A stretch of 23,145 nucleotides of DNA from Chloroflexota bacterium (lineage in GTDB: Bacteria; Chloroflexota; Dehalococcoidia; UBA2979), in the NCBI GenBank assembly GCA_027593235.1, contig JAQCIU010000045.1, forward strand, positions 1-23,145. The letters run 5' to 3'. The position numbers were made by a program, and so were the translations under genes. Below the pieces are notes generated by a model that was not told the origin of the DNA, searched no databases, and was given only the letters and a program-made list of their open reading frames with translations. Positions 1 to 19,579 of the stretch are shown piece after piece. Position 1 is the first letter of the stretch, and every line of letters begins with the position of its first letter.

Positions 1-790
1 CGAAGCGGCGCGCCGGGCGGCGCGTGATCAGCACGCCCTCGGGCAGCTGCGTGGCGGGGAGGCTGCGCTCGCCGTCCGGGATCAGCAGCTCGCGCGGGGC
101 GAGCCGCGCCCATTCGCCGGCCAGCTCGTCGGCGCCCAGCAGCTGCAGCTCCAGCTCACCGGTGGTCACGTCGCAGGCCGCCAGCACCCAGCGTGCCGCG
201 CCGCGTGGATCGGCCGGGCCGGGTGCGGCCGCGGCCAGCCAGTTGTGCGCGCCGCTCGGGAGTAGCGCACCGCTCTCAACCGTCCCCGGCGTCACCACGC
301 GCAGGATCCGCCGCTCGACGAGTCCCTGCCCCGGCTCGCTCACCTGCTCCGCGATCGCGACGCGGTGGCCGCCGCTGACGAGCCGTTCGAGGTAGCGTTC
401 GAGCTGGTGGTGCGGCACCCCGGCGAGCGGAATCCGCCCTTCGCCCTTGCCCATCGGCCGCGAGGTGAGCGCGATCCCCAGCTCGCGCGAGCAGAGCTCG
501 GCGTCGTCGTCGAAGGTCTCGTAGAAGTCGCCCATCCGAAACAACAGGATCGCGTCCGGCTGCTGCGCCTTCAGCGCCAGGTACTGGCGGCGCGCCGGGG
601 TGAGGCCGGGCTCCGCGCTGCCGCGCGTCCGCGCGCGCGACGACGCGACCCGCGATGGACGCGCGGCGGCGGCCGGCGATGAATCGCCCTCGGTCGCCGG
701 ATCGGGCGGCCGGATCGGGACGTCCGCAGATCGTTCGAGCCGTGGCTCCGACAGGAGCGCATCCTCCGCGGGGAGCGGATCGGGGTTCAG
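1..790 (-). CDS. mutS: DNA mismatch repair protein MutS, 5' part (runs off the window edge; start codon uncertain)
   Basis: Not in the ORF track. Manual minus-strand translation gives LTPARRQYLALKAQQPDAILLFRMGDFYETFDDDAELCSRELGIALTSR...PLAGVPHHQLERYLERLVSGGHRVAIAEQ...VERRILRVVTPGT, the MutS domain I signature. The frame is open up to TAA at 808-806. CTG at 790 is a tentative start. Confidence 0.93.
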   Translation of the reverse strand, partial: MNPDPLPAEDALLSEPRLERSADVPIRPPDPATEGDSSPAAAARPSRVASSRARTRGSAEPGLTPARRQYLALKAQQPDAILLFRMGDFYETFDDDAELCSRELGIALTSRPMGKGEGRIPLAGVPHHQLERYLERLVSGGHRVAIAEQVSEPGQGLVERRILRVVTPGTVESGALLPSGAHNWLAAAAPGPADPRGAARWVLAACDVTTGELELQLLGADELAGEWARLAPRELLIPDGERSLPATQLPEGVLITRRPARRF

Positions 791-876: not shown

Positions 877-1815
877 TCAGGCGGCGACGCGGTCCCGTCC
901 GTTGCGTTTCGCGGCGTAGAGCGCGGTGTCAGCGCGCCGGATGAAGTCATCGATCGATTCGCCGGCGGCCGGCTCGACCGCGACACCGAGGCTCGCGGTG
1001 ACGTGCACGATCCCGCCGCCCGCATGCGCGGCGCCGTCGATCCCGTCGAGCGACACGACTGCTGCGGCGGTGGCGTTGCGGAGCGCCTCGGCGAGCGCGA
1101 TCGCGGTCTCGCGGGTTGCGCCGGGGAAGACCGCGAGGAACTCCTCGCCGCCCCAGCGGCCGATGTGCGCACCGCTCGGCAGCGTTTCGCGGATCGTCGC
1201 GGCGACGACCGAGAGCACGGCATCGCCGGCGGCGTGCCCGTGGGTGTCGTTGACCAGCTTGAAGTGATCGATGTCCAGCAACGCGACGGCGAACGGCTCG
1301 CCGCTGGCGGCCGCGGCGTCGAACGTCGGCTCGGCGCGCGCGAGCAGGCCGACGCGGTTGAGCAGGCCCGTCAGGCCGTCGTGGGTCGCCATCCGTTGCA
1401 ACACCTGCTCCGCCTCGCGGCGCACGGTGATGTCGGTGCCGATGCCGAGCACGCTGTAGCCACCTTCGCCGGGGGCGAGCGCGGTGAAGCTCATCTGCAC
1501 CCAGACGCTGCGGGCCGGCCCCTCGACCCGAAAGACCGCGTTCAACACGTCCTCGCCGCTGCGCCGGACGCGCTCGTGCGGCTGCTCTTCGAGCGGGATC
1601 AGGCGTCCACGCTCGTCGAAGTAGCGCACCGCCTCGTTCGCGGCGGCGTCACCGTCGGCGCACCCGAGCGTGGCGACGATCTCGTCGCCATAGTGCTGGA
1701 GTTGCCCGCTGTCATCGCGGATGGTGACGATCAGCCCGGCGCCCTCGCAGACGTTCAAGACCATCGCCGCATCGAGGTGCGGCGCGATCCCCTGGAGAGC
1801 CCGAAACAACGCCAT
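877..1815 (-). CDS. PAS/PAC-GGDEF diguanylate cyclase
   Basis: Motifs TDITVRREAE, HDGLTGLLNR, DIDHFKLVNDTHGHAAGD, GRWGGEEF and ADTALYAAKRNGRDRV. Confidence 0.92.
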   Translation of the reverse strand: MALFRALQGIAPHLDAAMVLNVCEGAGLIVTIRDDSGQLQHYGDEIVATLGCADGDAAANEAVRYFDERGRLIPLEEQPHERVRRSGEDVLNAVFRVEGPARSVWVQMSFTALAPGEGGYSVLGIGTDITVRREAEQVLQRMATHDGLTGLLNRVGLLARAEPTFDAAAASGEPFAVALLDIDHFKLVNDTHGHAAGDAVLSVVAATIRETLPSGAHIGRWGGEEFLAVFPGATRETAIALAEALRNATAAAVVSLDGIDGAAHAGGGIVHVTASLGVAVEPAAGESIDDFIRRADTALYAAKRNGRDRVAA

Positions 1816-2040
1816 ACAACCGCCTTGCCAGCCGTCAGTTGATCACATGCGGATCACAGGACTCTCTGAGCATCGGCACGCGGCGCGATGCCATGTAGCA
1901 CCGATGTGAGGCGATGGCGGCCGATCGGCGCTCGCCATGGAGGAATCAGGCTCCGCGCAGTGAACGTCCACACCGTGCGAGGCGATCGTCTTCGCGCCGG
2001 CCGCGGGCGGTCGCCGAGGACAGCGACGCGCCGGATCGCG

Positions 2041-2046
2041 CACAAT
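2041..2046 (+). promoter_or_regulatory. Putative -10 element (CACAAT) for tRNA-Leu
   Basis: TATAAT-like hexamer about 20 nt upstream of the tRNA 5' end, in otherwise GC-rich DNA. Confidence 0.4.
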
Positions 2047-2065
2047 CGCCCCGCCGCGCACACGC

Positions 2066-2149
2066 GCCGGGGTGGCGGAATGGCAGACGCAGCGAGCTTA
2101 AACCTCGCGGCCGCGAGGCGTGTGGGTTCGAATCCCACCCCCGGCACCA
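2066..2149 (+). tRNA. tRNA-Leu, anticodon TAA (UAA)
   Basis: Acceptor stem GCCGGGG/CCCCGGC, discriminator A, encoded CCA. D-arm GCGGAATGGCAGACGC. Anticodon stem GCGAG/CTCGC with loop CTTAAAC. Long variable arm. T-arm GTGGG-TTCGAAT-CCCAC. Confidence 0.97.
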
Positions 2150-2218
2150 CTGAGCAGCGCCGCGGTCGACCCATATTCACAACGTGCACCTGCCATGCGG
2201 GATCACCCGTAACGCATG

Positions 2219-2248
2219 TTGTCAGGCGTCACATACACCTTGTATGAT
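2219..2248 (+). promoter_or_regulatory. Sigma70-type promoter for the diiron operon
   Basis: TTGTCA (2219-2224), 18 nt spacer, TATGAT (2243-2248). An inverted repeat CATAC-N5-GTATG overlaps the -10. Confidence 0.65.
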
Positions 2249-2448
2249 GCCGGGAGCAAGCCGAATCTGCGCGGGCAACTTCGCGTTGCGATCCGCCCGC
2301 CGTTCGGTACGCCGGTGCCCCAGGCACCATCCGCGGGCGTCCGCGCCGAGGCCCAGGTTTGGTCACTGCGGTCCGGATGCACATCCGTCCGGCACGAGGC
2401 CGGTCGGGCAGGGCCGTTGAACAGCAGGGTCCGTTCACGGGGAGAACT

Positions 2449-3588
2449 ATGGCAACTGAGGTCCGATCGACCGATACGCAGGGGACGCCCGTCAGCAGTG
2501 AGTACCAGGCATTGCTCGACTACGGTCGCGGCAACGGCTACAAGCTCGACTGGCTGCAGCCCGGCCCAACGCTTGGCACTAGTCCGGAGTTCAACTCCAA
2601 GGCCGGTGGTCTGCTGCTGCAAGATGCCGACCTCGGTCCGTTCGGCCAGGTGCCCGAATTCAGCGACAACATGAGCGGCCGGCCGCGCGGCGCGATTCAG
2701 CGCCCGAGCGCGCCCCGCGTCGGCAACTACCCGGTTCGCACCAAGGCGGACGTCTGGCTGCGCAACGGCGCCCAGCTCTACGAAGAGGCCGTGCAGCGCC
2801 AGTGGTCGTCCTCGACCGACGTGCCGTGGCACACGCTCGAGGAGCTGCCGGACGACATCGAGCGCGCCGAGTGCATGCTCGCCACCTTCCTGACCGAGGT
2901 CGAGTTCGTCGCCGGCGACGTGCCCGGCAAGTGGATCGCCTACACCACCCCGGACTACTACGAGCCGCGGATGTTCCTGATCTCCCAGATCATGGACGAG
3001 GCGCGCCACATGGACGTCTTCCGCAAGCGCGCGCTCGCCAACGGCGGCGGCTTGATGGGCCAGCTCGACAACTCGGCGCTCGCCGGTGGCGCGATTGACT
3101 CCGCCCGCGACTTCACCGAGATGTCCGCTCGGCTGCACATCTCCGGCGAGGGCCTGGTGCTCTCGATCTTCCGGATGGGCGAGCTGATGAGCTACAACGA
3201 CGCCGAGAAGGCGATGTACCGCCTGGCCGCCTCGGACGAGTCGCGCCACGTCGCCTTCGGCGTGATGCACCTCCAGTACCTGTCGCAGACCGACCCGGAG
3301 CGCAAGGCCGAGATTCACAGCTACCTGGACGAGATCGAGATTGGCCTGGCCCGGGGCTTCGGCGGTCAGAACCCCGCCGCCCGCGGCACGCCGTCCAGCG
3401 CGGCGCTCTCGATCCTCCTCGGTGGTGGCGCGGACGCCGCGTCGCTGCGCGAGGGCGAGCAGATCGCGGTGGCGCTGCGTCAGCGGCAGATCAAGGAATA
3501 CGTCCAGCGCGTGCGCGTCGCCGGCTTCGGTGACCGCTTCGAGGATGGCCGCGCCAACCCGGCACTCGCACAGTACGTCGCGGCCTAA
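2449..3588 (+). CDS. Ferritin-like dimetal-carboxylate (diiron-type) protein, putative catalytic alpha subunit
   Basis: ATG 2449 follows a GGGGAGA RBS. Complete ligand pattern TEVEF...DEARH...GEG...DESRH, plus an LYEEAVQRQW..TDVPW N-terminal motif reminiscent of R2lox/AurF-like ferritin-fold oxidases. Confidence 0.85.
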   Translation: MATEVRSTDTQGTPVSSEYQALLDYGRGNGYKLDWLQPGPTLGTSPEFNSKAGGLLLQDADLGPFGQVPEFSDNMSGRPRGAIQRPSAPRVGNYPVRTKADVWLRNGAQLYEEAVQRQWSSSTDVPWHTLEELPDDIERAECMLATFLTEVEFVAGDVPGKWIAYTTPDYYEPRMFLISQIMDEARHMDVFRKRALANGGGLMGQLDNSALAGGAIDSARDFTEMSARLHISGEGLVLSIFRMGELMSYNDAEKAMYRLAASDESRHVAFGVMHLQYLSQTDPERKAEIHSYLDEIEIGLARGFGGQNPAARGTPSSAALSILLGGGADAASLREGEQIAVALRQRQIKEYVQRVRVAGFGDRFEDGRANPALAQYVAA

Positions 3589-3607
3589 GGCCGCACACCA
3601 ACTACCA

Positions 3608-3646
3608 GACGGCGCCCGCGCCCCCTTGGGGACACGGGCCGCCGTC
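3608..3646 (+). terminator. Intergenic GC-rich hairpin (weak terminator or mRNA-stability element)
   Basis: Imperfect stem GACGGCG-CCCG..CCCC / GGGG..CGGG-CGCCGTC, followed only by GCTT. Confidence 0.45.
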
Positions 3647-3694
3647 GCTTGGTACTGACCGCCGCCGCGCGCGGCCAACGAGGGGAATCACTGG

Positions 3695-4768
3695 ATGGTT
3701 CAGCAGGCAACACCAGACACCGCAGCGTCGGCGGATCCGCCCCCCGACTTGAGCTGGATGGAAAAGACGCTCGGTTGGGGCACCCGTGCCCGGCCGGAGC
3801 CGCACGGCGGCGGTCTCACCGTCGACGCGCTGAACATCGGCGTCTACGCCGACGTGCCGGATCACATCCCGTACCGCAACCGCTGCCCGCGTGGCGCCTA
3901 CCCGGCGCCGGAAGCCGGCAACATCGGCGGGTACTACCTGCAGGACAAGTACGAGCAGTGGTCAGATGTGGCCGGCCTGCTCTACGAAGAGGCGATTAGC
4001 CGCCGCTGGTCGACCGCGACCGACGTGCCGTGGGAAACCGCTGGCAACGTCCCGACCGACGTCGAACTCGCCGTCGCCCAGGTCGCAACCGAGCTTTGCC
4101 AGCAGGCCTCGATCGAGACCGAGGTGATCTCCGCCTGGCTGCAGAACCTCAGCCCCGGTTACCACGAGGTGAAGCTGTTCCTCTCGACCGTCGTCTACGA
4201 CGCGGCGCGGATGTTTGATGGCTACCGCAAGCGCGCCATGCTCAACGGCGGCGGCATGCTGCTCGAGAGCCCCGGCCGGATGAACCGCCAGATCCTGGAG
4301 ACCTACGCGGGCTGGTCGGAGACCGTGCTCACGCAGTACATCATGCGCGGCACGCTCCAGAAGACGATCCTGCGCTACCTCTCCGTCTACGGCCCGACCG
4401 AGGCCGATCGGGTGCTCGCCTGGCGCATCCTGCCGGACCGCGCCCGCACCGCCGCCTACGCGATGGACCATGTCCGCTTCGCGATCAGCCAGCGCCCGAC
4501 GCTCCGCAAGACGTTCGACGACTGGCTGATGCTGGTGGAGATGGTGCAGTCCGCGGAGAACCGCGATCCGGTCCTCTGGGAGGCGCTCGCGATCATCTTC
4601 GGTGGCGGCATCAAGGGCATGGACGAGGGCATGGCTCGCGTCCGCGAACTGCAGGCCGACTGGGTCCGCGAGTACATCAGCTACACGAAGGTCGCCGGCA
4701 TCAACCGCGGTGCGAAGCTCTTCCCGGGATTCGGGATGATGCTGAACACCGACGCGGCCGCCGGCTAG
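3695..4768 (+). CDS. Ferritin-like paralog lacking metal ligands, putative structural beta subunit
   Basis: Colinear with the upstream gene (PRGA, LYEEAISRRWSTATDVPW, RKRAMLNGGG). The ligand motifs read CQQAS, DAARM, MRGT and DRART. RBS GAGGGGA. Confidence 0.8.
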   Translation: MVQQATPDTAASADPPPDLSWMEKTLGWGTRARPEPHGGGLTVDALNIGVYADVPDHIPYRNRCPRGAYPAPEAGNIGGYYLQDKYEQWSDVAGLLYEEAISRRWSTATDVPWETAGNVPTDVELAVAQVATELCQQASIETEVISAWLQNLSPGYHEVKLFLSTVVYDAARMFDGYRKRAMLNGGGMLLESPGRMNRQILETYAGWSETVLTQYIMRGTLQKTILRYLSVYGPTEADRVLAWRILPDRARTAAYAMDHVRFAISQRPTLRKTFDDWLMLVEMVQSAENRDPVLWEALAIIFGGGIKGMDEGMARVRELQADWVREYISYTKVAGINRGAKLFPGFGMMLNTDAAAG

Positions 4769-4774
4769 CCGCCG

Positions 4775-5077
4775 ATGCCGTTGTTTGCCTACCGCTGCGA
4801 TTCCTGCGAGGGACAGTTCGAGGCGCTCGTGCGTCCGAACCGCTCGCCCGAGCCCGTGGCGTGCAAGCTCTGCGGCAAGGAAACGATCCGCAAGGTGCCG
4901 ACCGCGTTCGCGCTCGCACACAGCGAGCTGGACGCGATCCGCGCCCTCGATCCCCGCTACAAGCGGATGGTCGAGGACCAGATGACGAAAACGCCGGAAG
5001 CCGAACCCATGCGGCATCTGGCGAAGATGACACCGTTCGACGTGGTCGATGACCCCGGCGATCCAATTGATTTCTAG
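4775..5077 (+). CDS. FmdB-family zinc-ribbon (CxxC...CxxC) protein
   Basis: MPLFAYRCDSCEGQFEALV...VACKLCG matches the MPxYxYxCxxC...CxxCG pattern. Starts 6 nt after the previous stop. Confidence 0.85.
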   Translation: MPLFAYRCDSCEGQFEALVRPNRSPEPVACKLCGKETIRKVPTAFALAHSELDAIRALDPRYKRMVEDQMTKTPEAEPMRHLAKMTPFDVVDDPGDPIDF

Positions 5078-5101
5078 AACAGACCACGGAGGAACAACAT
5101 C

Positions 5102-5545
5102 GTGACCACCGGCACCCTCACCTTCCCGTCGACCGACTGGTTCCAGGCGCTCGCCGACATCACCAAGGAAGACCTGGGCTACAAGAAGTTCGGCCGCATG
5201 AATGCCGTGATCGCCTTCAAGATTGGCGACACGAACATCAGCTGCAACTTCGACGTACTCGACATCCGCGACGTGCGTGAGATCACCAACGAAGAGCTGC
5301 GCGACGTCGACATCGTGATCGAGATGCCGGAAGACGTCTGGTCGGGGATGCTCGCCAACATCAAGGAGCACGGCCGTGCCGTCGGCGAGTGGACGCTGAA
5401 CACGCTGGACCTCCGCCTCGACGAGGAGATCCACAAGAACATGATGGGCGACGGCTTCAAGGCGGACTTCTTCTTCCGCTACAACCCGAGCCTCCAGGTC
5501 TTCATCGACAACGCGGCGAAGCTCGACTTCGACGTCGCCTCGTAA
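5102..5545 (+). CDS. SCP2-like (sterol carrier fold) small acidic protein
   Basis: GTG start after GGAGGA. The N-terminal FPSTDWFQAL and the D-I-V-I-E-M-P-E-D-V-W segment resemble SCP2-like proteins. Codon usage is strongly biased. The fold call is an inference. Confidence 0.6.
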   Translation: MTTGTLTFPSTDWFQALADITKEDLGYKKFGRMNAVIAFKIGDTNISCNFDVLDIRDVREITNEELRDVDIVIEMPEDVWSGMLANIKEHGRAVGEWTLNTLDLRLDEEIHKNMMGDGFKADFFFRYNPSLQVFIDNAAKLDFDVAS

Positions 5546-5582
5546 GGACCGACCACTGGACCGCGCAGACGAGATCACGGTC

Positions 5583-5616
5583 GACGGCCGTCCCACCGGG
5601 GGCGGCCGTCTTCGTT
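5583..5616 (+). terminator. Intrinsic terminator closing the four-gene diiron operon
   Basis: 12-bp stem GACGGCCGTCCC/GGGGCGGCCGTC (one G-U), 4-nt loop, TTCGTT tail. Confidence 0.65.
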
Positions 5617-5651
5617 AACGGCGTGCGACGAGACCGCGCGGCAACGCGCGG

Positions 5652-5657
5652 TATGAT
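5652..5657 (+). promoter_or_regulatory. Putative -10 (TATGAT) for the Mo-subunit gene
   Basis: Near-consensus hexamer between the terminator and ATG 5712. Confidence 0.5.
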
Positions 5658-5711
5658 CCGCGCGAGCACCGCCCCGGGACAACGCCCGGTCCGCCGAGAG
5701 GATCCCCGCCG

Positions 5712-8006
5712 ATGACGACCGTCCAACGCCCGCTGACCGTGATTGGCACGCGCCCCATCCGGCCGGACGGCGTCGAGAAAGTCACCGGCCGCGCGATCTA
5801 CGGCGCCGATGTCCGGCTCGCCGGCATGCTCCACGGGCGCGTCAAGCGCAGCCCCCACGCGCACGCGATCATCAAGCGCATCGATACTTCGAAGGCGCTC
5901 GCGTTGCCCGGCGTCCACGCCGTGATCACCTACGAGGACTTCCCGGAACCGGCCGAGCCGGTGATGCAGACGATCCGCGGACCGATGCCGACCCAGTGGG
6001 ACATCGAACGGCTGATGGCGCGGCGCAAGGTGCTCTTCAAGGGCCACCCGGTCGCCGCGATCTGCGCGAACGATCCGCACATCGCCGAGGACGCGCTGCT
6101 GCTGATCGAGGTCGAGTACGCGGTCCTGCCGCCCGTCATCAGCATCGACGACGCGCTGGCGCCGGGCGCCCCGATCCTCCACGACGACGGTCTGTCTGAC
6201 CTCGTTGAGGGCCTGCTCGAGCCGATCGACGGCCGCCCGACGAACGTCGCCCGCACGATCGAGATGGGCTTCGGCGACATCGAGGCGGGCTTCGCCGCGG
6301 CCGAGGTGGTACTCGAACGCGTCTACGAGACCGGCATGGCGCACCAGGGCTACATCGAGACCCACAACGGCACCGCCGTCTGGAACCCCGACGGCAAGCT
6401 GACGATCTGGACCAGCACCCAGGGCGCCTTTGGGATCCGTCAGAACGTCGCGCGCATCCTCAACCTCCCGCTCGGCGACCTGCGGGTGATCCCGACCGAG
6501 ATCGGCGGTGGCTTCGGCGCCAAGAACGTCGTCTACCTGGAGCCGCTGGCCGCACTGCTCTCGAAGAAGAGCGGCCGGCCGGTGCAGATCACGATGAACC
6601 GCGCCGAGGTGCTGGAGGCGACCGGCCCCACCTCCGGCACGCGCTCCTTCGTCAAGATCGGCGCGATGCGCGACGGCACGCTCGTCGCCGCGGACATCCG
6701 CCTGGAGTACATGGCGGGCGCGTACCCCGGATCGCCGGTCCCCGGCGGCGCACGCTGCGCGGTCGGCCCCTATCTCGTCCCCAACCAGCGGATCATCGGG
6801 CTCGACATCGTGCTCAACCGCCCGAAGGTGGCGGCCTACCGCGCCCCGGGCGCGCCGGCCTCGGAGTTCGCCGTCGAGTCGATCCTCGATGAGCTGGCCG
6901 AGCTGCTGGACATGGATCCGATGGAGCTGCGCGACAAGAACGCGGTCACCGAAGGCGATCCGCGCAGCGACGGCGCGACGCACGGCTCGGTCGCCGCGCG
7001 CGAAGTGGTCGCGGCCGTGATCGCGCACCCCCACTACCGCGCCGAGATCACCAAGCCCGACGTCGGGCGCGGGGTCGCGATGGGCTTCTGGCAAAACGGC
7101 GGCGGCGAGTCCAGCGCCTACGCGAACGTGCACGAGGACGGCACGGTCACCCTCGTTACCGGGTCGGTCGACATCGGCGGTCAGCGCGCCGCGCTGGCGA
7201 TGCAGTTCGCGGAGACAATGGGCATCGCCTACGAGGACGTGAACTCGCTCGTCGGCGACACCGAGACGATCGGCTTCACCGGCAACACCGGCGGCAGCCG
7301 CACCACCTTCGCCACCGGCTGGGCGGCGTACCAGTCCGCCCTCGACATCCGCGAGCAGCTCGAGCGTCGCGTCGCGAAGCTCTGGGACGTCTCGCCGGAC
7401 GCGGTCTCGTACGACCCGACCGATGCGTCGCTGCACGGCCCCGACGGCAAGGTGATGACGTTCAAGGAAGCGGCGAAGCGACTGCCCGGCAGCGGCGGCA
7501 ACATCCAGGGCCGCGCCGACGTCGTCTCGACCAGCGTCGGCAAGGTCGGCGCCTGCTTCGGCGCCCACATCGCGGACGTCGAGGTGGACCGCGAGACTGG
7601 CAAGGTGACCGTCCTCCGCTACACCGCGATCCAGGACGTCGGCCGCGCGATTCATCCCGCTTATGTCGAGGGACAGATCCAGGGCGGCGCTGTCCAGGGC
7701 ATCGGCATGGCGCTGAACGAGGACTACCTCTACCGCGCGGACGGATCGATGGCGAACGCCTCGTTCCTCGACTATCGGATGCCGGTCACGAACGATGTCC
7801 CGATGATCGACACCGTGCTCGTCGAGGTGCCGAACCCCGGTCACCCGTACGGCGTGCGCGGGGTTGGCGAGGTGCCGATCGTGCCGCCGCTGGCGGCGAT
7901 CGCGAACGCGATCCATGACGCCGTCGGCGTCCGCATCACGAAGCTGCCCGCCACGCCCGCCGTGATCCGCGCAGCGCTCGAGGAGCTGGAAGCCGGCCGG
8001 TCGTAG
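5712..8006 (+). CDS. Xanthine dehydrogenase/aldehyde oxidase family molybdopterin-binding (large) subunit
   Basis: Motifs KVTGRAIYGAD, RSPHAHAII, HQGYIETH, GGGFGAK, AYRAPG, GGSRTT, EGQIQGGAVQGIG and RGVGE (catalytic Glu). Confidence 0.95.
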   Translation: MTTVQRPLTVIGTRPIRPDGVEKVTGRAIYGADVRLAGMLHGRVKRSPHAHAIIKRIDTSKALALPGVHAVITYEDFPEPAEPVMQTIRGPMPTQWDIERLMARRKVLFKGHPVAAICANDPHIAEDALLLIEVEYAVLPPVISIDDALAPGAPILHDDGLSDLVEGLLEPIDGRPTNVARTIEMGFGDIEAGFAAAEVVLERVYETGMAHQGYIETHNGTAVWNPDGKLTIWTSTQGAFGIRQNVARILNLPLGDLRVIPTEIGGGFGAKNVVYLEPLAALLSKKSGRPVQITMNRAEVLEATGPTSGTRSFVKIGAMRDGTLVAADIRLEYMAGAYPGSPVPGGARCAVGPYLVPNQRIIGLDIVLNRPKVAAYRAPGAPASEFAVESILDELAELLDMDPMELRDKNAVTEGDPRSDGATHGSVAAREVVAAVIAHPHYRAEITKPDVGRGVAMGFWQNGGGESSAYANVHEDGTVTLVTGSVDIGGQRAALAMQFAETMGIAYEDVNSLVGDTETIGFTGNTGGSRTTFATGWAAYQSALDIREQLERRVAKLWDVSPDAVSYDPTDASLHGPDGKVMTFKEAAKRLPGSGGNIQGRADVVSTSVGKVGACFGAHIADVEVDRETGKVTVLRYTAIQDVGRAIHPAYVEGQIQGGAVQGIGMALNEDYLYRADGSMANASFLDYRMPVTNDVPMIDTVLVEVPNPGHPYGVRGVGEVPIVPPLAAIANAIHDAVGVRITKLPATPAVIRAALEELEAGRS

Positions 8007-8028: not shown

Positions 8029-8304
8029 ATGGCGGTCCTCCACGTCCCCGCCCCGCTGCGGTCGCTTTGCGGTGGCCGCGATCGGATCGAGGCCGCCGGC
8101 GAGACGCTGCGCGCGGTCTTCACGGCGGTCGGTCGCGAGTACCCGGAGCTGAACGCGCGGATCCTCGATGCGCACGGGCTGCGGCCGGAGATGGCCGTCG
8201 CGATCGACGGATCGATCCTCGACCAGAGCGGACTGCTCGAGGCCGTCACATCCGACACCGAGATCTATCTCGTGCCGCCGATCGGCGGCGGGTCGGCGGA
8301 CTGA
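8029..8304 (+). CDS. MoaD/ThiS-family ubiquitin-like protein
   Basis: 91 aa with a beta-grasp pattern (VPAPLRSLCGG, GETLRAV, YPEL, AVAIDG), ending IYLVPPIGGGSAD. Confidence 0.85.
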   Translation: MAVLHVPAPLRSLCGGRDRIEAAGETLRAVFTAVGREYPELNARILDAHGLRPEMAVAIDGSILDQSGLLEAVTSDTEIYLVPPIGGGSAD

Positions 8305-11757: not shown

Positions 11758-12609
11758 CTACTCGCCGCCGCCCGACTGGGCGTCGCGTGCCGCGCGGTGC
11801 AACTCGTAGTTGTCGACGGCGCGCTGGACCATCGGGCGGCGGCGGCCCGCGGGCTTATCGAGGGCGAAGCCGGGGTCTTTCTCGCCCTGCTGGCTCAGCA
11901 GGTAGTGGGCGTGCGCGCCGCGGATGTGCTGGCTGAAGCCCTGCGATTCCTGCGCGTCGTTGACCATCTGCTTCATCATCCGGAGCTGGAACGAGTCGTT
12001 CTCGGCGACGCGGCGGGCGTAGGCCATCGTCTCCGCCTCGAGCTGGTCGGCGGGGTAAGCACGGTTCGCGAAGCCCAACTCGACTGCCTCCGCGCCATCG
12101 ATGAAGCGGCTCTCGAAGAAGATCTCCTTCACCTTGCGCGGGTGAAGGTCCCAGGGCGGCGAGAAGTACTGGAAGTTCGTGCCGAGGAACATCGCATCGT
12201 CCGCGGCGAAGATCAGATCCATCGCCGAGGCGATCATCCAGCCGCCGAAGATGCAGTAGCCGTGGACCATCGCGATCGTCGGCTTCGGCAGATTGCGCCA
12301 GCGCAGCGTGTTCTCGACGTTCATCGAGGTGGACCGCTCGAAGAGCCCGCGCAGGCCCTCCTCATACGGGCGCTCTTCCTGGTCGGCCTTCTCCTCGGGG
12401 GTGCCGAGGTCGTGGCCGGCGGAGAAGGATTCGCCGAGCCCGGAGAGGACGATCACGCGTACGTCGCGGTCCTCGACGGCGCGGGCGAAGGCGTCGTCCA
12501 TCTCCTCGCGGAGCTGGCGGCTCTGGGCGTTGCGGTACTTCGGTCGGTCGAGCTTGACGCGCGCGACGCGGCCGTCGACCTCGTACTGGATCTGTTCGTA
12601 GTCGGTCAT
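11758..12609 (-). CDS. Crotonase-superfamily (enoyl-CoA hydratase-like) protein, atypical active site
   Basis: True start ATG 12609 (MTDYEQIQY). Motifs LDRPKYRNA, FSAGHDL, PKPTIAMVHGYCIFGG and GAEAVELGFAN. Confidence 0.9.
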   Translation of the reverse strand: MTDYEQIQYEVDGRVARVKLDRPKYRNAQSRQLREEMDDAFARAVEDRDVRVIVLSGLGESFSAGHDLGTPEEKADQEERPYEEGLRGLFERSTSMNVENTLRWRNLPKPTIAMVHGYCIFGGWMIASAMDLIFAADDAMFLGTNFQYFSPPWDLHPRKVKEIFFESRFIDGAEAVELGFANRAYPADQLEAETMAYARRVAENDSFQLRMMKQMVNDAQESQGFSQHIRGAHAHYLLSQQGEKDPGFALDKPAGRRRPMVQRAVDNYELHRAARDAQSGGGE

Positions 12610-12653
12610 CGTGCCGCCTTCGCTGTGTGCTGGCTCTCGCCGGGACCGATCCG

Positions 12654-13916
12654 CTACTGCGGCGGCCCCTCGCCGGTGATGTTCTTCGCCAACAGTTCTT
12701 CGTACTGCTCGTCGCTCATGCCGAGGAACTCGCGGAAGACCTCGAGCGAGTGCTGGCCCTGCAACGGTGCCGGGCGCTCCACCTTCGTCACGGCCTTGGA
12801 GAAGTGGAACGGCGCGCCGACCTGCGGCCAGCGACCGGCCTCGGGGTGATCGAGCTCGATCACGACGCCGCGCGCGCGCAGCACCGGGTCCGCCGACACC
12901 TCGAGTGAGTCGAGGACCGGCGCGGCGATCACGCCGGCAGCGGAGAGGCGGTCTGCGAGGGCGTCGCGATCCTCGGAGGCGGCCCATTCGGCGATCGCGC
13001 GGTCGAGGTCGTCCTCGTGCTGCTTCCGCGCGGCGTTGTCCGCGAAGCGGGCGTCGGTGTCCCAGCCGCGGTCGGCGACGGCGCAGAGCGCGGCCCACTG
13101 CGCCTCGGTCTCGGCGGCGAGCGCGACCCAGCGGCGGGTGCCCTCGGCGGTCGGTTGGACCGCGTAGATGCCGTGCGGCGCGAAGGTGAGGTGGCGGTTG
13201 CCGAGGCGCGGACGCTGCTCGCCGGTCAGCGTGTACTGGAGCGCGCTGTCGCCGATGTTCGCGAGGTTGGCCTCCTGCATCGAGAGGTCGACGTACTGGC
13301 CCTCGCCGGTGCGGTCGCGCTGGTGGAGCGCCGTGACGATCGCGGCGAAGCCGTAGAGCCCGGCGACGGCGTCGGGGTACATCTGCCCGGAGTTCATCGG
13401 CGGCCCGTCCGGGTAGCCGAGCAGCGCCGACATCCCCGAGGTGGGCTCGATCGTCCCGCCGATGCCGGGGATGTTCGCCCACGGGCCGTCGTGGCCGTAG
13501 GCGGAGAGGCTGGCCACGATGACGTCCGGCTTGATCGCCTTCAGCTCCTCGTAGGAGAGCCCGAGGTTGCCCACCACGCGCGGTGAGAAGTTCTCCGCGA
13601 CGATGTCGGCGAACGGCACCAGCGCGCGATAGATCGCCAGCCCCTCGGGGGTCGAGAGGTCGACGGTGAACGACCGCTTGCCGAGGTTCACCGAGTTGAA
13701 GAGTCCGTTGACGTTCCACGGATGCTCAGCCGTTGGCACCTGGGCCACGGCGTCGGCCATCGGCGTGGCGTAGGTACCGCGCCAGGAGTCGGGGCGCTTG
13801 CGCACCTCGAGCTGGATGATGTCCGCGCCGGCCATCGCGAGCAGCTCCGTGCAGTAGGTCCCCGCCCACGCCTGCGTGAGCACGATGCCGCGGACGCCGG
13901 CCAGCGGCCCGCTCAT
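12654..13916 (-). CDS. Family III CoA-transferase subunit with catalytic-type Asp
   Basis: Start ATG 13916 overlaps the upstream stop (ATGA). Motifs PLAGVRGIVLTQAWAG, NLGKRS, ENFSP and MYPDAVAG. Confidence 0.92.
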   Translation of the reverse strand: MSGPLAGVRGIVLTQAWAGTYCTELLAMAGADIIQLEVRKRPDSWRGTYATPMADAVAQVPTAEHPWNVNGLFNSVNLGKRSFTVDLSTPEGLAIYRALVPFADIVAENFSPRVVGNLGLSYEELKAIKPDVIVASLSAYGHDGPWANIPGIGGTIEPTSGMSALLGYPDGPPMNSGQMYPDAVAGLYGFAAIVTALHQRDRTGEGQYVDLSMQEANLANIGDSALQYTLTGEQRPRLGNRHLTFAPHGIYAVQPTAEGTRRWVALAAETEAQWAALCAVADRGWDTDARFADNAARKQHEDDLDRAIAEWAASEDRDALADRLSAAGVIAAPVLDSLEVSADPVLRARGVVIELDHPEAGRWPQVGAPFHFSKAVTKVERPAPLQGQHSLEVFREFLGMSDEQYEELLAKNITGEGPPQ

Positions 13917-15208
13917 CGCATCGCTCCCGGCGCTCGCTGCATTGACGGTGCTCCGGGGGTGACGGGCGTCGCCTCGGCGACCAACACGCCCGCCGCGAGG
14001 AGCGTTTGCACGCGCTCCTCCTCGACGTCGTACTCGCCGAGGAGCGCCAGCGTATGCTCGCCCGGACGCGGGGCGCGGGTGCGCAGGCGCCACGGGGTGG
14101 CGGAGAGCTTCACCGGCGCGCCGGTGTGTTCAGGGCCCTCGGGATCGTCGTCCGCGCGCACCCAGAAGCCGCGCGCGCGCAGGTGCTCGTTGTCGGTCAG
14201 CTCGTTCATCGCGAAGACCGGACCAGCGACCACGCGCCGCACGCCCAGTTCGTCGAAGAGGTCGCGCCGGCTCCAGCCCGCCATCGCCGTGTGTACGCGA
14301 TCGACCCACAGCTCGCGGTGCTCGTTGCGGTACCAGCCCTCCTGGAGCTGCTCGTCATCGGCAAGGTCATCGAGGCCGAGCACGCTCATCGCATCTCGAT
14401 AGAAGTGTGCGCGGCTGAGCGTCAACGCGAAGAAGCCGTCCGCGACCGGGACCGGGCCGCCAGTGACGTCCATCGTCTCTTTGCGTGCGCCGACCTCGCC
14501 CGCGTATTGCGCGCGCAGGAGCGCCGGCGCGAAGGTCGACGCCATCACCTCGAACTCGCTGATATCGAGGTGCTGGCCGTCGCCGGGACTCGGTCGCTCG
14601 GGGCCCCCGGAATCGGCGGTGACCGCTCGATGGTGCAGCGCGGCGACCGCCGCGGCGTAGGCCAGCACGCCCGTGCAGTAGGAGCCCTGGTACTGGGTCG
14701 CCTGCAGCGGCGGCTGCGCAGCGAAGCCGTTGATCGAGGCCCAGCCCGACCGCGCCGAGCTGGTGAGGTCGTTCCCGGGCAGCGCCGCATACGCGCCGTC
14801 CTGCCCGTGCGCCGTCACCGAGACGACCACGAGGCCCGGGCGGATCGCCTCGAGCGTCTCGGCATCGAGGCCCCAGCCCGCCAGCACGCCGGGCGCGAAG
14901 CTCTCGATTAGCACGTCGGCGTGTGTCACGAGGTCGCGCAACAGTTCGCGACCGGACTCCGCCTCGAGATCGAGCACGAGCGATCGCTTGTTCGCCAGCA
15001 GATGCTCCGCGGGGATGCCGCGCCCGTCCTCGGTAGCCGGGGCGTGCGCGCGCAGCGGGTGGCCGCCGAGCGGCTCGACCAGCGCAACGTCCGCGCCGAA
15101 GTCGGCGAAGAGGCGGCTGCACCAGGCGGCAGCGACCGAGGTGCTGAGGTCCAGCACCTGCAGCCCGTGGAGCGCGCTCTCGGTTGGCTGATCCTGACCG
15201 GTGGTCAC
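13913..15208 (-). CDS. Family III CoA-transferase subunit lacking the catalytic Asp
   Basis: Motifs LHGLQVLDLS, FADFGADVALVEP and NKRSLVLDL. The Asp-equivalent segment reads QYQGSYCTG. Confidence 0.9.
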   Translation of the reverse strand: MTTGQDQPTESALHGLQVLDLSTSVAAAWCSRLFADFGADVALVEPLGGHPLRAHAPATEDGRGIPAEHLLANKRSLVLDLEAESGRELLRDLVTHADVLIESFAPGVLAGWGLDAETLEAIRPGLVVVSVTAHGQDGAYAALPGNDLTSSARSGWASINGFAAQPPLQATQYQGSYCTGVLAYAAAVAALHHRAVTADSGGPERPSPGDGQHLDISEFEVMASTFAPALLRAQYAGEVGARKETMDVTGGPVPVADGFFALTLSRAHFYRDAMSVLGLDDLADDEQLQEGWYRNEHRELWVDRVHTAMAGWSRRDLFDELGVRRVVAGPVFAMNELTDNEHLRARGFWVRADDDPEGPEHTGAPVKLSATPWRLRTRAPRPGEHTLALLGEYDVEEERVQTLLAAGVLVAEATPVTPGAPSMQRAPGAMR

Positions 15209-15224
15209 TGCTTCGACCGGCCGC

Positions 15225-16064
15225 TTAGTCAGCGCTGCCGCGCTTGGCGACCTGGAAGATCGTGGTGTGGCGGATACGCGTCAGCTCGGTGCCGTCCTCG
15301 GCGATCAGCTTCGCGTCGAGCACCGCGTAGTGGTGGCCCTTGCGCTCGAACGCGTCGGCCAGCCGTCCGATCGAGGTGACCGTCTGGCCCGACTCGAAGC
15401 GCGCGAGGTTCTGCACGTGCGTCGACGAGTGAATCGCCGGACCGTAATCGAACGAGTGGTGCATCAGGCGCGTCATGCGACCGGCGATCCAGCCGGGGTG
15501 GACCAGCGGGTGCGCGCCGATGAAGCGCGGGTCCGAGGTGCGCTGCTTCTCGACGCCGTACTCGCGCGCGTCCGCCTCGCTGATCGGGGTGGCGAGTGGG
15601 CGCATCTGGTCGGTGCTGTGCGCGAGGTCGAGCGTGAGTCGCGGCAGTTTCGCCGGGCGCTCCTCGGCGGTGCGACGCTCCGGCTCGGTGATCTCGTCGA
15701 ACCAGGGCGCCTTGCCCAGGCCCAGCTCTCCGACGAGCGCGTTATCGCCGCTCGGCTTGGTCATCCGGAACGTGTGCCCGCCCTCGGCGGTCTCATCCAC
15801 GCGGACCGTCAGCTCGTCGCCCGGGTAGGTCGGTCGGCGGAACCGAACCAGCGCCCAGCCGTCGTCGAGCCAGCGCTCGCCGAGCGACTCGAGGATCGTT
15901 GGCGTCGCCCAGCCCCAGACCGTCACGCCCCCAACGAGCGCCGCCTGGTACCCATAGTCCTTCGCGCCCTGCGTCGAGTGGATGGCGTTTGAGATGGTCG
16001 GATCGTCCGGACCATCGAGGAACGCGGTCACCACGTTCTCGGCAAAACGGTTCGCGGTCGTCAT
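15225..16064 (-). CDS. MaoC-like double-hotdog protein (putative R-specific hydratase/dehydratase)
   Basis: ATG 16064 after GGAGGG. SNAIHSTQGAKDYGYQAALVGG is a MaoC NxIH motif, followed by VRFRRPTYPGDEL. A second hotdog half includes AIHSSTHVQN and FERKGHHYAVLD. Confidence 0.75.
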   Translation of the reverse strand: MTTANRFAENVVTAFLDGPDDPTISNAIHSTQGAKDYGYQAALVGGVTVWGWATPTILESLGERWLDDGWALVRFRRPTYPGDELTVRVDETAEGGHTFRMTKPSGDNALVGELGLGKAPWFDEITEPERRTAEERPAKLPRLTLDLAHSTDQMRPLATPISEADAREYGVEKQRTSDPRFIGAHPLVHPGWIAGRMTRLMHHSFDYGPAIHSSTHVQNLARFESGQTVTSIGRLADAFERKGHHYAVLDAKLIAEDGTELTRIRHTTIFQVAKRGSAD

Positions 16065-16095
16065 GAAGCCCTCCAGGCCTGCCGGGTCGGGGCCG

Positions 16096-16101
16096 ATTGT
16101 A
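16096..16101 (-). promoter_or_regulatory. Putative internal -10 (TACAAT)
   Basis: Near-consensus hexamer in the 65-nt gap upstream of the MaoC-like gene. Confidence 0.5.
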
Positions 16102-16129
16102 GCCGGGCCGCCGTCCGAGGAAACGTTTG

Positions 16130-17248
16130 CTAGCCGAGCCACTCCGCCAGCACGCCGTCCGTGTCCTGCCCCGGCTCCGCCGGAGCCGGACGGTTCGGCA
16201 CCGCGGGCCCGTCTTCGAGGCGGAACGGGCGTCCGGGAATCGCGACCGCCGCGCCGGTCGGGCCGGGCACCTCACGCAGCGTCGCGCGCGCCTCGAGCTG
16301 CGGGCACGAGAACAGATCGTCGACGGTCTGGACCAGCGCGAAGGTCAGGTGCAGCGCCTCCGCCTGTTCGAACCACTCCTGCGCCGTCTGGCGAAGGAAC
16401 GGCGGTACGAACAGCTCCAGGTACTCGTCCCAGTGCTGCATGCGCCCCTCGGCGGTCGCGAACCGCTCCTCGCCGAGCCGCGGTTCAGCGAGGAGTTTGG
16501 CGACGCCGTCCATCCGCATGTTCGAGACGGCGCCCGCGGCGCAGTACACGAACCGATCGGAGGCCGGCACCATCCGCAGCGCCTGCTTGATCCGCTGCTC
16601 GCGGCGTGCCACCTCGCCGTCGTGGGCGTACGCCGAAGTCGGCGTGTAGGTCAGCGCCGCCATCGCCTCGACGAGCGACACGTCGACACGGCGCAGTCCG
16701 GCGCCGAGGTCCGACGACAGCTTCGCCGCGACCGCCGCGCCCGCGCCGGCGAGCCCGCCGGTCATCGCCGCCGCGTACGGCGGGAGTTGCATCGGCGGCT
16801 GGTCCCATTCGCCGGTCAGGAAGAGCAGACCGCTGGCCGCCTGCACCACGAGATCCGAGGCCGCCCAGCCCGCCCGTGGACCGCGCAGCCCGAACGCCGT
16901 CACCGACACCACCGCCGATCGCGGAGTGAGGGTCGCGAACGCCGCGCGCTCGATTCCGCTCGCGGCGGCACCCGTCGGCGAAAAGTCGCCGATCACCACG
17001 TCCGCCGCGCCCGCGAGTCGATCGAGGGCCGCGCGATCCTCGAGGACCACGCTCCGCTTGCCGCTGTTCACGAACGCGAACGCGCCGCCTTCGCCGCCAC
17101 CCCAGCGCGAGCCCTGGCGCCGCAGCGGATCGCCACCGCGCGGCTCGACCTTCACCACGTCCCAGCCCACCTCGGCGAGCAGCTTCGTCGCGTAGCCGCC
17201 GGCCACACCGGTCGACAGATCGATCGCCCGCGGCGCGCTCTCGCTCAC
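16130..17248 (-). CDS. Family III CoA-transferase subunit lacking the catalytic Asp
   Basis: Motifs AIDLSTGVAGGYATKLLAE, VVKVEPRGGDPLR and NSGKRSV. The Asp-equivalent segment reads PYAAAMTGG. GTGA overlap with the upstream gene. Confidence 0.9.
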   Translation of the reverse strand: MSESAPRAIDLSTGVAGGYATKLLAEVGWDVVKVEPRGGDPLRRQGSRWGGGEGGAFAFVNSGKRSVVLEDRAALDRLAGAADVVIGDFSPTGAAASGIERAAFATLTPRSAVVSVTAFGLRGPRAGWAASDLVVQAASGLLFLTGEWDQPPMQLPPYAAAMTGGLAGAGAAVAAKLSSDLGAGLRRVDVSLVEAMAALTYTPTSAYAHDGEVARREQRIKQALRMVPASDRFVYCAAGAVSNMRMDGVAKLLAEPRLGEERFATAEGRMQHWDEYLELFVPPFLRQTAQEWFEQAEALHLTFALVQTVDDLFSCPQLEARATLREVPGPTGAAVAIPGRPFRLEDGPAVPNRPAPAEPGQDTDGVLAEWLG

Positions 17249-18528: not shown

Positions 18529-19458
18529 CTAGAAGGTGGCGATCGGGTTCACCGGCGAACCGGTCCCGCCGATCACGATCAGCGGCGCGATCACCAGCAT
18601 GAATTCGTAGCGGCCGTGCTCCGCGCAGATCTGGGACAGCCGTTCGAAGTTTGCGTTGTCCAACAGCGGCAACCCCATGTGCGGGATCACCACCTCGTGG
18701 ATCGGAATGCGGCCGTACTGCTCCTGGCCGGACGCCTCCTGGAGGTCCCAGCCGAGCAATGATGCGTCCGTCTCGTGGAGGAACTCGATCGCCGAGACGC
18801 CGACGCCCGGGTTCTTCGAGGGAACGCCACCAAATTCGTGGTCCGGGTTCAGCCGGAAGAACGGCTCCGCGCCGGAGCGAATCAGCACCGCGTCCCCTGG
18901 GCGCGGCTCGATGAGCTGCTGCTCCGCCCACTCCTGGAGGTGCCAGCCCTCGACCGGTTCTCCCAGCGCCACGTGATCAGCGCCACGCATCACCGGGATG
19001 TCGTAGAGCACCCCACGCGTCACGATGCCGTCGCGCCAGTAGTCGACGGAGTTCGTCTTCGCGCCATCCTCGGTCACCAGCGACGAGTCGCGGCCGTTGT
19101 AGAGCTGGCCGTTGTCGCCGGTGAAGATGTGGCACAGCGCATCGATGTGGGTGTTCACGAACCCGTGGTACGAAACGCCGATGTAGTCGCCCGAGGACCA
19201 TGGTCCGACCGACATCTTGTGGTCAGCCGGTCGCGGGTTGCGCGGACCGCTGATCACCGCTTCCGTCGCGATCGGGTTGGCCAGCGACACCGTGCGCCCA
19301 TTGCGGACCAGCGCACTCGCATCGCGACGCACCTCGTCGCTGATGTGATTCAGCGTGCCAAGTTGATCGTCCGTGCCCCAGCGGCCCCAGTTGCTGAAGC
19401 GCTCCTTGTAGGCCAGATACTCTTCGACGCTCGGTTGCGTTCGTGTTTGCAGTGTCAT
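18529..19458 (-). CDS. Cyclase-family (kynurenine formamidase/isatin hydrolase-like) metallohydrolase
   Basis: ATG 19458 after GAGGGGGA. Motifs NWGRWGTDDQLGTLN, the HGFVNTHIDALCH metal motif, GIVTRGVLYD, PGDAVLIRSG and GGTGSPVNPIA. Confidence 0.92.
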   Translation of the reverse strand: MTLQTRTQPSVEEYLAYKERFSNWGRWGTDDQLGTLNHISDEVRRDASALVRNGRTVSLANPIATEAVISGPRNPRPADHKMSVGPWSSGDYIGVSYHGFVNTHIDALCHIFTGDNGQLYNGRDSSLVTEDGAKTNSVDYWRDGIVTRGVLYDIPVMRGADHVALGEPVEGWHLQEWAEQQLIEPRPGDAVLIRSGAEPFFRLNPDHEFGGVPSKNPGVGVSAIEFLHETDASLLGWDLQEASGQEQYGRIPIHEVVIPHMGLPLLDNANFERLSQICAEHGRYEFMLVIAPLIVIGGTGSPVNPIATF

Positions 19459-19480
19459 GGAATCCCCCTCGCGCGGCGGG

Positions 19481-19568: not shown

Positions 19569-19579
19569 GGAGGGAACCT

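Follow-up and report, generated by a model that had tools for sequence, protein, structure and literature searches.

The DNA analyzed here, referred to throughout as the window, is a 23,145-nucleotide stretch of a contig from an uncultured Dehalococcoidia bacterium (Chloroflexota; UBA2979; assembly GCA_027593235.1, JAQCIU010000045.1:1-23,145, forward strand), with a G+C content of ∼70%. Its subject is a cassette of four genes within 2449-5545 (Table 1), which are separated by intergenic gaps of 106, 6, and 24 nucleotides (nt) and, as an earlier sequence-only reading of the same DNA had noted, are all co-oriented on the plus strand. The first two genes encode a ferritin-like dimetal-carboxylate subunit, here termed alpha, and its ligand-less paralog, termed beta; the third encodes a small zinc-ribbon protein (gene 3) and the fourth an acidic protein with a remote resemblance to SCP2 domains (gene 4, the SCP-like protein). 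The products of all four genes are acidic (isoelectric points [pI] of 4.4-5.3) and look soluble, and the start codon chosen for alpha fits the length of its relatives (374-392 amino acids [aa]). On balance, the comparisons described below make it somewhat probable that the cassette specifies an enzyme of an R2lox-related, so far unnamed family: soluble, located in the cytoplasm, and activating oxygen at a dimetal-carboxylate site (Fe/Fe or Mn/Fe). A dimetal oxygenase/oxidase paired with a degenerate structural paralog is a known arrangement; the family to which alpha belongs and the set of accessory genes are new.

Table 1. Coordinates of features in the window and of SCP2-containing R2-like loci in other Chloroflexota.
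Feature	Position	Strand	Remarks
MutS N-terminal part	2-544	-	gene runs past the window's left edge
GGDEF protein	877-1815	-	
tRNA-Leu(taa)	2066-2149		directly upstream of the promoter-like site; only Rfam match in the window
Promoter-like site TTGTCA-N18-TATGAT	2219-2248	+	10/12 consensus; ∼200 nt upstream of alpha
Alpha, ferritin-like dimetal-carboxylate subunit, 379 aa	2449-3588	+	ATG inside open reading frame 2359-3588
Beta, alpha paralog, 357 aa	3695-4768	+	six ligand positions replaced
Cys4 zinc-ribbon protein (FmdB family), 100 aa	4775-5077	+	begins 6 nt past the stop codon of beta
SCP-like acidic protein, 147 aa	5102-5545	+	no Pfam/NCBIfam match
G+C-rich hairpin, 12-bp stem, 4-nt loop	5583-5610	+	after the last gene, then TTCGTT
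Molybdenum (Mo)-hydroxylase large-subunit gene (xanthine-dehydrogenase-family molybdopterin subunit)	5712-8006		
MoaD-like gene	8029-8304		between the Mo-hydroxylase gene and the CoA-transferase
Two-domain family III CoA-transferase, 821 aa	8409-10874	+	both halves full PF02515 domains
Crotonase-family gene and four single-domain family III CoA-transferase genes	11758-18522	-	
Putative cyclase gene	18529-19707		after the crotonase/CoA-transferase run
Weak cupredoxin-like open reading frame	19457-20056	+	SoxE, E 1.1e-4
FkbM-family methyltransferase	20198-21031	-	
MgsA/RarA-type AAA ATPase	21156-22562	-	
R2-like/SCP2 fusion protein	L199:1305-2609	+	
R2-like/SCP2 fusion protein	L200:1422-2756	-	
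SCP2 gene abutting an R2-like gene	L201:2184-3483	+	E 3.4e-17

By sequence, alpha carries a complete dimetal site. The full E/ExxH/E/ExxH set that the sequence-only reading had recognized in the first gene consists of E152, E184-x-x-H187, E234, and E264-x-x-H267, the Glu-to-ExxH distances being 32 and 30 residues, and all six ligands (E152, E184, H187, E234, E264, and H267) are invariant in 40/40 aligned alpha-type proteins whose identity to alpha extends down to 26%. The same six residues are kept in all 80 alphas assembled for a phylogenetic tree. E172, R186, D263, and R266 are likewise invariant among alphas, which yields two D-E-x-R-H motifs, and the position after the first ExxH that may hold a radical Tyr is occupied by a Phe (F191).

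Searches against family models left alpha without a named family. No Pfam family was matched over threshold, the sole match being to DUF455 (E 0.0076; 16 bits vs 34); neither the AurF family (PF11583) nor the PaaA/PaaC family (PF05138) was matched at E ≤0.1, and the soluble diiron monooxygenase family PF02332 gave no match for alpha, beta, or gene 4. Against the R2lox models of NCBIfam (NF006198-NF006202) alpha reached at best 35.6 bits, far below the cut-off of 194 (NF006200), which places it outside that family; NF006198 had no match in the window's own genome at 1e-30. When a profile of the 40 alphas was compared with all PDB sequences, the best solved relative was a VlmB homolog (6d9f/8wvr; E 1.3e-13, profile positions 146-325), followed by Geobacillus kaustophilus R2lox entries (4hr0; E ∼1e-7), Sulfolobus acidocaldarius R2lox (7qbk; E 1.7e-6), aldehyde-deformylating oxygenase (E 0.03), and phenol hydroxylase (E 0.24), and the search returned no PaaA, BoxB, methane monooxygenase, AurF, or desaturase entry. 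Profile-profile alignment (hhalign) of alpha with a Chloroflexota R2lox gave a probability of 94 (E 1.4e-7, 155 columns); the corresponding alignments of the alpha family with Escherichia coli PaaA, PaaC, and PaaB gave E values of 0.043, 0.34, and 0.86, the PaaA portion being confined to 38 columns over one metal helix. By Pfam, NCBIfam, the PDB profile, and hhalign, alpha lies nearer to R2lox than to PaaA/PaaC or the soluble diiron monooxygenases, in line with the earlier judgment, made by eye, that the proteins resemble R2lox/AurF more than the monooxygenases. Judged by sequence, alpha falls in the ferritin-like dimetal-carboxylate superfamily, with ties to the R2lox/VlmB branch but outside every named family.

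The alpha family, which has neither a Pfam model nor a name, gave 2127 matches among 8000 scored candidates and, in a separate search, 673 clusters (50% level, E ≤0.001). Names attached to its members and partners in databases were "hypothetical protein," "ferritin-like domain-containing protein," and, for one relative of gene 4, "predicted small metal-binding protein," and full-text literature searches returned no paper describing the family. Fused alpha forms longer than 664 aa were not found, which is weak evidence.

Alpha was further compared with its two nearest solved relatives. R2lox (R2-like ligand-binding oxidase; 4hr0, Mycobacterium tuberculosis 3ee4, and 7qbk) activates oxygen at a Mn/Fe or Fe/Fe site, and a Mn/Fe cofactor and a hydrophobic channel occupied by a fatty acid are among its traits. 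It shares with alpha the E/ExxH/E/ExxH ferritin-like signature, the Phe in place of the radical Tyr after the first ExxH, and the lack of a dedicated reductase; alpha differs in an N-terminal extension of ∼100 residues, common to beta, in a Leu at the position of the cross-linking Tyr, and in its score far below the R2lox family cut-off. The VlmB homolog shares the two D-E-x-R-H motifs and is the best solved relative by sequence, with an alignment limited to the core helices (∼180 positions). To our knowledge, the characterized R2lox proteins are not accompanied by ligand-less paralog, SCP-like, or zinc-ribbon accessory genes, and we know of no beta, SCP-like, or zinc-ribbon partners for the VlmB homolog.

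These relatives also suggest two alternatives to an enzyme that turns over a catabolic substrate. VlmB is described as oxidizing a hydrazine to an azoxy group, its partner being VlmO, a membrane-bound hydrazine synthase of the same biosynthetic cluster (PMC11705231), and the strength of the match to its homolog (E 1.3e-13) could mean that the cassette is a VlmB/AurF-like N-oxygenase or N-N-oxidizing enzyme of small-molecule biosynthesis. We consider this highly improbable: the AurF Pfam model is unmatched, biosynthetic genes are not among the neighbors, which are instead catabolic (CoA-transferases, crotonase, a TcuA-like gene, and a sugar-acid dehydratase), and SAR202-type genomes, noted for their families of catabolic paralogs (PMC5395668), hold an expanded set of these proteins. 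The window also showed no membrane gene resembling VlmO. Alternatively, the proteins may not be turnover enzymes at all and may serve R2lox-like ligand binding or self-modification, or rubrerythrin-like handling of peroxide or iron. Such a role would suit the absence of a linked reductase and the known chemistry of R2lox, a Tyr-Val ether self cross-link (Y162/V72 in GkR2loxI) in a protein whose physiological function is given as unknown (PMC6060897). However, the cross-linking Tyr of R2lox aligns with L229 of alpha in both the PDB-profile and hhalign alignments; the expansion of paralogs and their variable catabolic neighborhoods fit substrate-diversified enzymes; and the TetR regulators found next to many units hint at a small-molecule inducer. 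A nonturnover role is accordingly rated very unlikely.

Beta is a paralog of alpha (27% identity, E 9e-42), and at the family level the relationship spans most of the protein (hhalign probability 100, E 3.7e-72, 322 columns). As the sequence-only reading had stated, it has none of the ligands, the residues at the six ligand columns being A, A, M, R, R, and T, and by itself it matches no PDB or Pfam entry. Beta is under strong constraint, since 48 columns are invariant among 46 orthologs, and all loci found to contain it have an alpha next to it. Paralogy, loss of ligands, and strong conservation together are the reason for regarding beta as a likely noncatalytic partner of alpha, in which role it would replace the second protomer of an R2-type dimer and shape the substrate channel or the assembly. 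The predicted product is an alpha-beta dimer of the R2 type with catalysis confined to alpha, on the pattern of PaaA/PaaC. R2lox proteins, by comparison, are homodimers.

Two established groups of enzymes follow the same logic. In PaaABC(D)E, the catalytic diiron subunit PaaA is paired with its structural paralog PaaC and joined by the small PaaB, the substrate is a coenzyme A (CoA) thioester, and the assembly is a dimer of heterodimers (PMC4498308); the catalytic/structural pairing resembles that of the cassette, but homology is undetectable beyond the one metal helix, and the PaaE-type reductase has no counterpart that could be found in the window's assembly. The soluble diiron monooxygenases (MmoX/Y, TmoA/E, and phenol hydroxylase) likewise combine a catalytic alpha with a ligand-less beta of common origin, but differ from the cassette in their ∼500-aa subunits, coupling protein, Rieske ferredoxin, and reductase.

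Conservation of the gene set was examined by scanning one genome per species, which gave 199 alpha relatives, of which the best 79 loci were read. The window's order, alpha-beta-Zn-SCP, occurs in 34 loci of 79, and a five-gene form with two SCP paralogs (alpha-beta-SCP-SCP-Zn) in 20 of 79, including metagenome-assembled genomes (MAGs) labeled Gammaproteobacteria; the remainder are alpha-beta pairs at contig ends (7 of 79), alpha alone (17 of 79), and one alpha-alpha tandem (1 of 79). Wherever beta is present and the DNA continues, zinc-ribbon and SCP-like genes follow (54/54 of such loci among the 79). The four genes are therefore co-conserved, the outcome on which the sequence-only reading had made its proposal depend, and together with the lack of any matching named family this upholds its view of the cassette as an uncharacterized multicomponent enzyme. 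Co-occurrence was also scored in 301 Dehalococcoidia genomes, including the unpublished genome G258, with thresholds of E ≤1e-40 for beta and E ≤1e-10 for the SCP-like protein. Beta was present in 84 and the SCP-like gene in 96 of these genomes (both 81, beta only 3, SCP-like only 15, neither 202), bearing in mind that related genomes are not independent; the alpha/beta/SCP-like family is present in about a quarter of the sampled Dehalococcoidia.

More distant lineages preserve part of the set. With P0140 (an alpha 40% identical to that of the window) as the query, 41 loci were collected from MAGs labeled Myxococcota or Deltaproteobacteria, and in 34/41 the order is SCP-alpha-partner or SCP-partner-alpha, the alpha having the EEHEEH ligand set and the partner lacking all six ligands. 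Of the other loci, one (L120) has room for an SCP-like gene and no SCP match, the rest being cut by contig ends, and a zinc ribbon was present in 0/39 of the loci scored. In a third lineage, collected with the alpha P0137 (18 loci labeled Acidimicrobiia, Binatia, Gammaproteobacteria, and Thermodesulfobacteriota), the SCP-like gene directly follows alpha in 17/18 loci, one lying at a contig end, and no beta or zinc-ribbon gene was found within 5 kb. A TetR gene precedes 15 SCP-alpha-beta units of the Myxococcota-type loci (e.g., L097:4762-5439, plus strand), and a divergent TetR gene lies upstream of 8 alpha-SCP units of the third lineage (e.g., L172:4198-4854, minus strand), which suggests small, self-contained, ligand-induced operons. 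Across these lineages, then, the SCP-like gene, found with alpha in four of the arrangements seen, is on present sequence evidence the constant companion of alpha, and beta and the zinc ribbon are lineage-specific additions. The alpha/beta heteromer, which the sequence-only reading had treated as the defining trait, has to be given up in that role, given the alpha-SCP pairs without beta in 17/18 loci and the existence of conserved solo-alpha clades.

The solo alphas raise the question of whether alpha requires beta at all. All 19 solo alphas in the tree set keep the six ligands, and in a quick maximum-likelihood tree of 80 alphas (L029 and L052 not included) they form clades of 13 and 5 (97 each by the Shimodaira-Hasegawa-like approximate likelihood-ratio test, SH-aLRT) plus one further sequence, nested among the cassette alphas. 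The window's own genome holds such a gene (G000:C29:23727-24863; L005:7728-8867), 79% identical to the cassette alpha, with six ligands, located between uvrA and a phosphotriesterase-family gene and with no beta, zinc-ribbon, or SCP-like gene nearby; Dehalococcoidia genomes also hold alpha-beta pairs and an alpha-alpha tandem with neither an SCP-like nor a zinc-ribbon gene nearby. One explanation is that alpha is an ordinary R2lox-type homodimer and that beta is a diverged paralog with a separate role (ligand binding or regulation) that merely shares the operon. This would account for the second, solo alpha in the same genome and for the many loci in which ligand-complete alphas stand alone or only with an SCP-like gene. 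We rate it as rather unlikely, as beta stands beside alpha in every beta locus, has kept its fold over 322 columns and 48 residues without change, and has in PaaA/PaaC a precedent for a catalytic/structural pair (PMC4498308). Moreover, a true beta (66-79% identity) is encoded elsewhere in 4/5 of the solo-alpha genomes checked further, because of which sharing of beta in trans is possible.

Gene 4 was characterized by several remote comparisons. It is small and acidic, as the sequence-only reading had it (147 aa, pI 4.44), and that part of the description stood; the SCP2 likeness proved weak, with no Pfam or NCBIfam match, coupling-protein family included. A profile of the gene 4 family placed two Thermus thermophilus SCP2 structures first among PDB entries (2cx7 and 1wfr; E 0.19 and 0.24). 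By hhalign, the family aligned with 29 PF02036 proteins from Chloroflexota genomes, one of them from the unpublished genome G467, at E 0.051 over 69 columns, and with a broader 122-sequence SCP-like profile the alignment improved to E 0.012 over 92 collinear columns. The nearest Atlas language-model clusters of gene 4 homologs are automatically named "putative SCP2," and one neighboring Atlas cluster has PF02036 on 12-20% of its members; PF02036 has no match in the window's own genome at 1e-5. The relationship to SCP2 is predicted to be a remote one, weak but consistent across comparisons, hence the name SCP-like. A conserved C-terminal extension lies beyond the SCP2-like part.

Unequivocal SCP2 domains do occur together with R2-like proteins in other Chloroflexota (Table 1). 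Two such proteins are single polypeptides of 435-445 aa in which an R2-like domain is followed by a C-terminal PF02036 domain; the R2 part matches PF00268 (E 1e-15 to 3e-16) and the R2lox model (E 1e-31 to 6e-34), and the SCP2 part passes PF02036 (E 1.7e-9 and 1.4e-10). Full-length relatives of the fusions are present in 8/151 sampled Chloroflexota genomes from at least three families. The alpha profile aligns with the R2 part of the fusions at a probability of 97.7 (E 1.8e-12, 207 columns), better than with canonical R2lox. As in the cassette, the R2-like module comes first and the SCP module after it, the same order as alpha then SCP-like; unlike the cassette, the fusions are single polypeptides with a true PF02036 domain and matches to PF00268 and the R2lox model, and they occur without beta and zinc ribbon. 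Independently of the similarity of gene 4 itself, the fusions support the view that R2-like oxidases of alpha's branch may work with a carrier-fold module.

Because of its universal linkage and the R2-SCP2 fusions, the SCP-like protein is a candidate accessory of alpha that would hand an organic substrate to the metal site or act as an effector, as proposed for UbiJ/UbiT. The pairing of an enzyme with an SCP-like accessory has a further analogy in COQ7-COQ9. UbiJ and UbiT are SCP2 accessories encoded with hydroxylase genes, with one reported fusion, for which substrate binding and organization of a complex have been proposed (10.1101/587956); unlike gene 4, they match PF02036 and partner flavin or U32-type hydroxylases. 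A stricter version of the effector role holds that the SCP-like protein is no substrate carrier and gates the metal site in the manner of the coupling proteins MmoB/DmpM. Its small size, acidity, constant position beside alpha, conserved C-terminal extension, and lack of a demonstrable SCP2 identity would all be in keeping with that role. In the balance against these features are the absence of any Pfam match, including the coupling-protein family, the fact that the sole remote signals are to SCP2, and the fusion of related R2-like proteins to true SCP2 domains, and we hold a pure gating role to be quite unlikely. Returning to the carrier-type accessory, the two SCP paralogs of the five-gene form may mirror the pseudo-symmetry of alpha and beta.

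The two CxxC motifs that had been pointed out in gene 3 are a genuine Cys4 set: C8, C11, C30, and C33 are the only cysteines of the protein, are invariant in 35/35 gene 3 sequences, and are followed by a conserved C-terminal tail. The protein passes the Zn_ribbon_8 model PF09723 (E 1.5e-11; 44.6 bits vs a cut-off of 34.4) and the FmdB-family model TIGR02605 (E 1.2e-12; 47.7 bits vs 31.3). Among PDB entries its profile matched C4 fingers of the GATA type (best E 1.8e-4), with rubredoxins absent from the matches, and the rubredoxin model PF00301 had no match at E ≤0.01 among 19 candidates scored in the window's own genome. Electron entry through a rubredoxin domain is familiar from rubrerythrin, and a rubredoxin-like electron carrier was considered for gene 3; with a profile of C4 zinc fingers and no PF00301 match, that candidate was ranked down. 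The zinc ribbon may rather be a lineage-specific small subunit acting as a structural clamp, which is the weakest step of the proposed mechanism; a role in electron entry is possible but unsupported. Separately, one record (P0363, on a 1.5-kb metagenome contig) joins an SCP-like gene of the second type to the zinc-ribbon gene in a single 227-aa frame, owing either to a true fusion or to the loss of a stop codon.

Redox partners were sought on the contig, in the genome, and among the neighbors of related cassettes. Fer2-type 2Fe-2S domains were absent from the window's contig, with four elsewhere in the genome; NAD_binding_1 domains, indicative of FNR-type reductases, were absent from the assembly, which is 89.7% complete; and no conserved reductase was present among the neighbors of 55 cassette sources. 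The missing coupling protein and reductase remarked on in the sequence-only reading were therefore not found in the wider searches either, there being no Pfam coupling-protein match in the cassette, no NAD_binding_1 in the assembly, and no Fer2 on the contig. Lacking a dedicated reductase, the enzyme might draw its electrons from a general donor of the ferredoxin type or from the substrate itself, and its chemistry would then be of the oxidase type (two or four electrons), like that of R2lox or VlmB. Candidate reactions are hydroxylation, epoxidation, desaturation, and an oxidase-type reaction.

Gene neighborhoods provide some information on the substrate. Orthologs of the 821-aa CoA-transferase of the window (43-68% identity) lie 92-1215 nt past the SCP-like gene, in the same orientation, in 14/54 complete loci, all 14 within the window's clade; in the window itself the Mo-hydroxylase and MoaD-like genes separate the cassette from the CoA-transferase, an insertion not present in relatives. 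The best NCBIfam model for the Mo-hydroxylase product is 4-hydroxybenzoyl-CoA reductase alpha (443 bits vs a cut-off of 995). Ten loci of the window clade also carry a flavoprotein gene, the one representative scanned matching TcuA (tricarballylate dehydrogenase; 557 bits vs a cut-off of 369), and crotonase and further CoA-transferase genes follow in this clade, with the run at 11758-18522 of the window partly syntenic. In the sister clade, three CoA-transferase genes lie upstream and two tandem enolase-superfamily genes downstream, of which two representatives were scanned and both exceeded the cut-off of the galactonate-dehydratase model. The neighbors of the five-gene clade include an aquaporin-type channel, a 2-oxoacid:acceptor oxidoreductase, a major facilitator superfamily (MFS) transporter, and an epoxide hydrolase. 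A carboxylic acid processed as its CoA ester would agree with the proposal made for SAR202 and its CoA-transferase expansions, these organisms having been proposed to oxidize recalcitrant dissolved organic matter (PMC5395668).

A carboxylate or CoA-ester substrate is favored for the window clade because of the CoA-transferase and the catabolic neighbors, and in this clade the linked two-domain CoA-transferase probably handles the substrate, a carboxylic acid, as its CoA thioester. Of the hydrophobic or CoA-linked substrate suggested by the sequence-only reading, the CoA-linked alternative is borne out by the CoA-transferase context, and the hydrophobic one finds no support among the neighbors. 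A hydrophobic lipid was accordingly ranked below a carboxylate or CoA ester for the window clade, given neighbors that are CoA-transferases, TcuA-like proteins, and galactonate-dehydratase-family proteins.

Several observations weigh against the proposed enzyme or restrict its scope. Beta is dispensable in some lineages, as seen from the solo alphas, alpha-alpha tandems, and alpha-SCP pairs, and in many genomes the alpha/beta-like matches, up to 6 or more, outnumber the SCP-like genes (only 1-3). The PF02036 model misses gene 4 and matches only 1/71 of its relatives, at E 0.047, and gene 4 does not line up with the SCP2 part of the fusions (E 0.3). Gene 3 resembles C4 zinc fingers and not rubredoxin. 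Finally, neighbors differ between clades, which limits the substrate inference to the clade of the window.

A broader proposal is that a large, so far unrecognized class of R2lox-type oxidases, independent of reductases, might be built around alpha and the SCP-like protein, with a carrier-fold subunit presenting carboxylate or CoA-ester substrates to a Mn/Fe or Fe/Fe site and with beta and the zinc ribbon as later add-ons. We regard this as speculative and rather doubtful. Were it true, the paralog expansion in SAR202-type Dehalococcoidia would be a main, overlooked oxygen-dependent route into recalcitrant carboxyl-rich organic matter, and the R2lox branch of the ferritin superfamily would gain its first physiological function. 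The cassette itself offers a genomic handle on that branch, through a carrier-like partner, a degenerate paralog, and a link to CoA-transferases and carboxylate catabolism, and discovery of its substrate would add a new type of oxygenase/oxidase to carbon-cycle models and to the repertoire of biocatalysts.

Expression signals of the cassette were also examined. A terminator had been placed at 5583-5616 by the sequence-only reading; the G+C-rich hairpin is indeed there (51-nt fold of −29.8 kcal/mol, z −3.5), but its tail is only TTCGTT, and because this T tail is short the hairpin was missed by the consensus terminator scan. The leader between the promoter-like site and alpha (2249-2448, ∼200 nt) has no Rfam match. 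The promoter proposed at 2219-2248 fared better: it is the sole such site in 1800-5800, where shuffled sequences have a mean of 0.5, and among 161 loci compared TTGTCA-N18-TATGAT was found in no others except the two closest relatives, L006 and L007, where it also lies upstream of alpha despite diverged flanks and where the order tRNA-promoter-alpha is kept.

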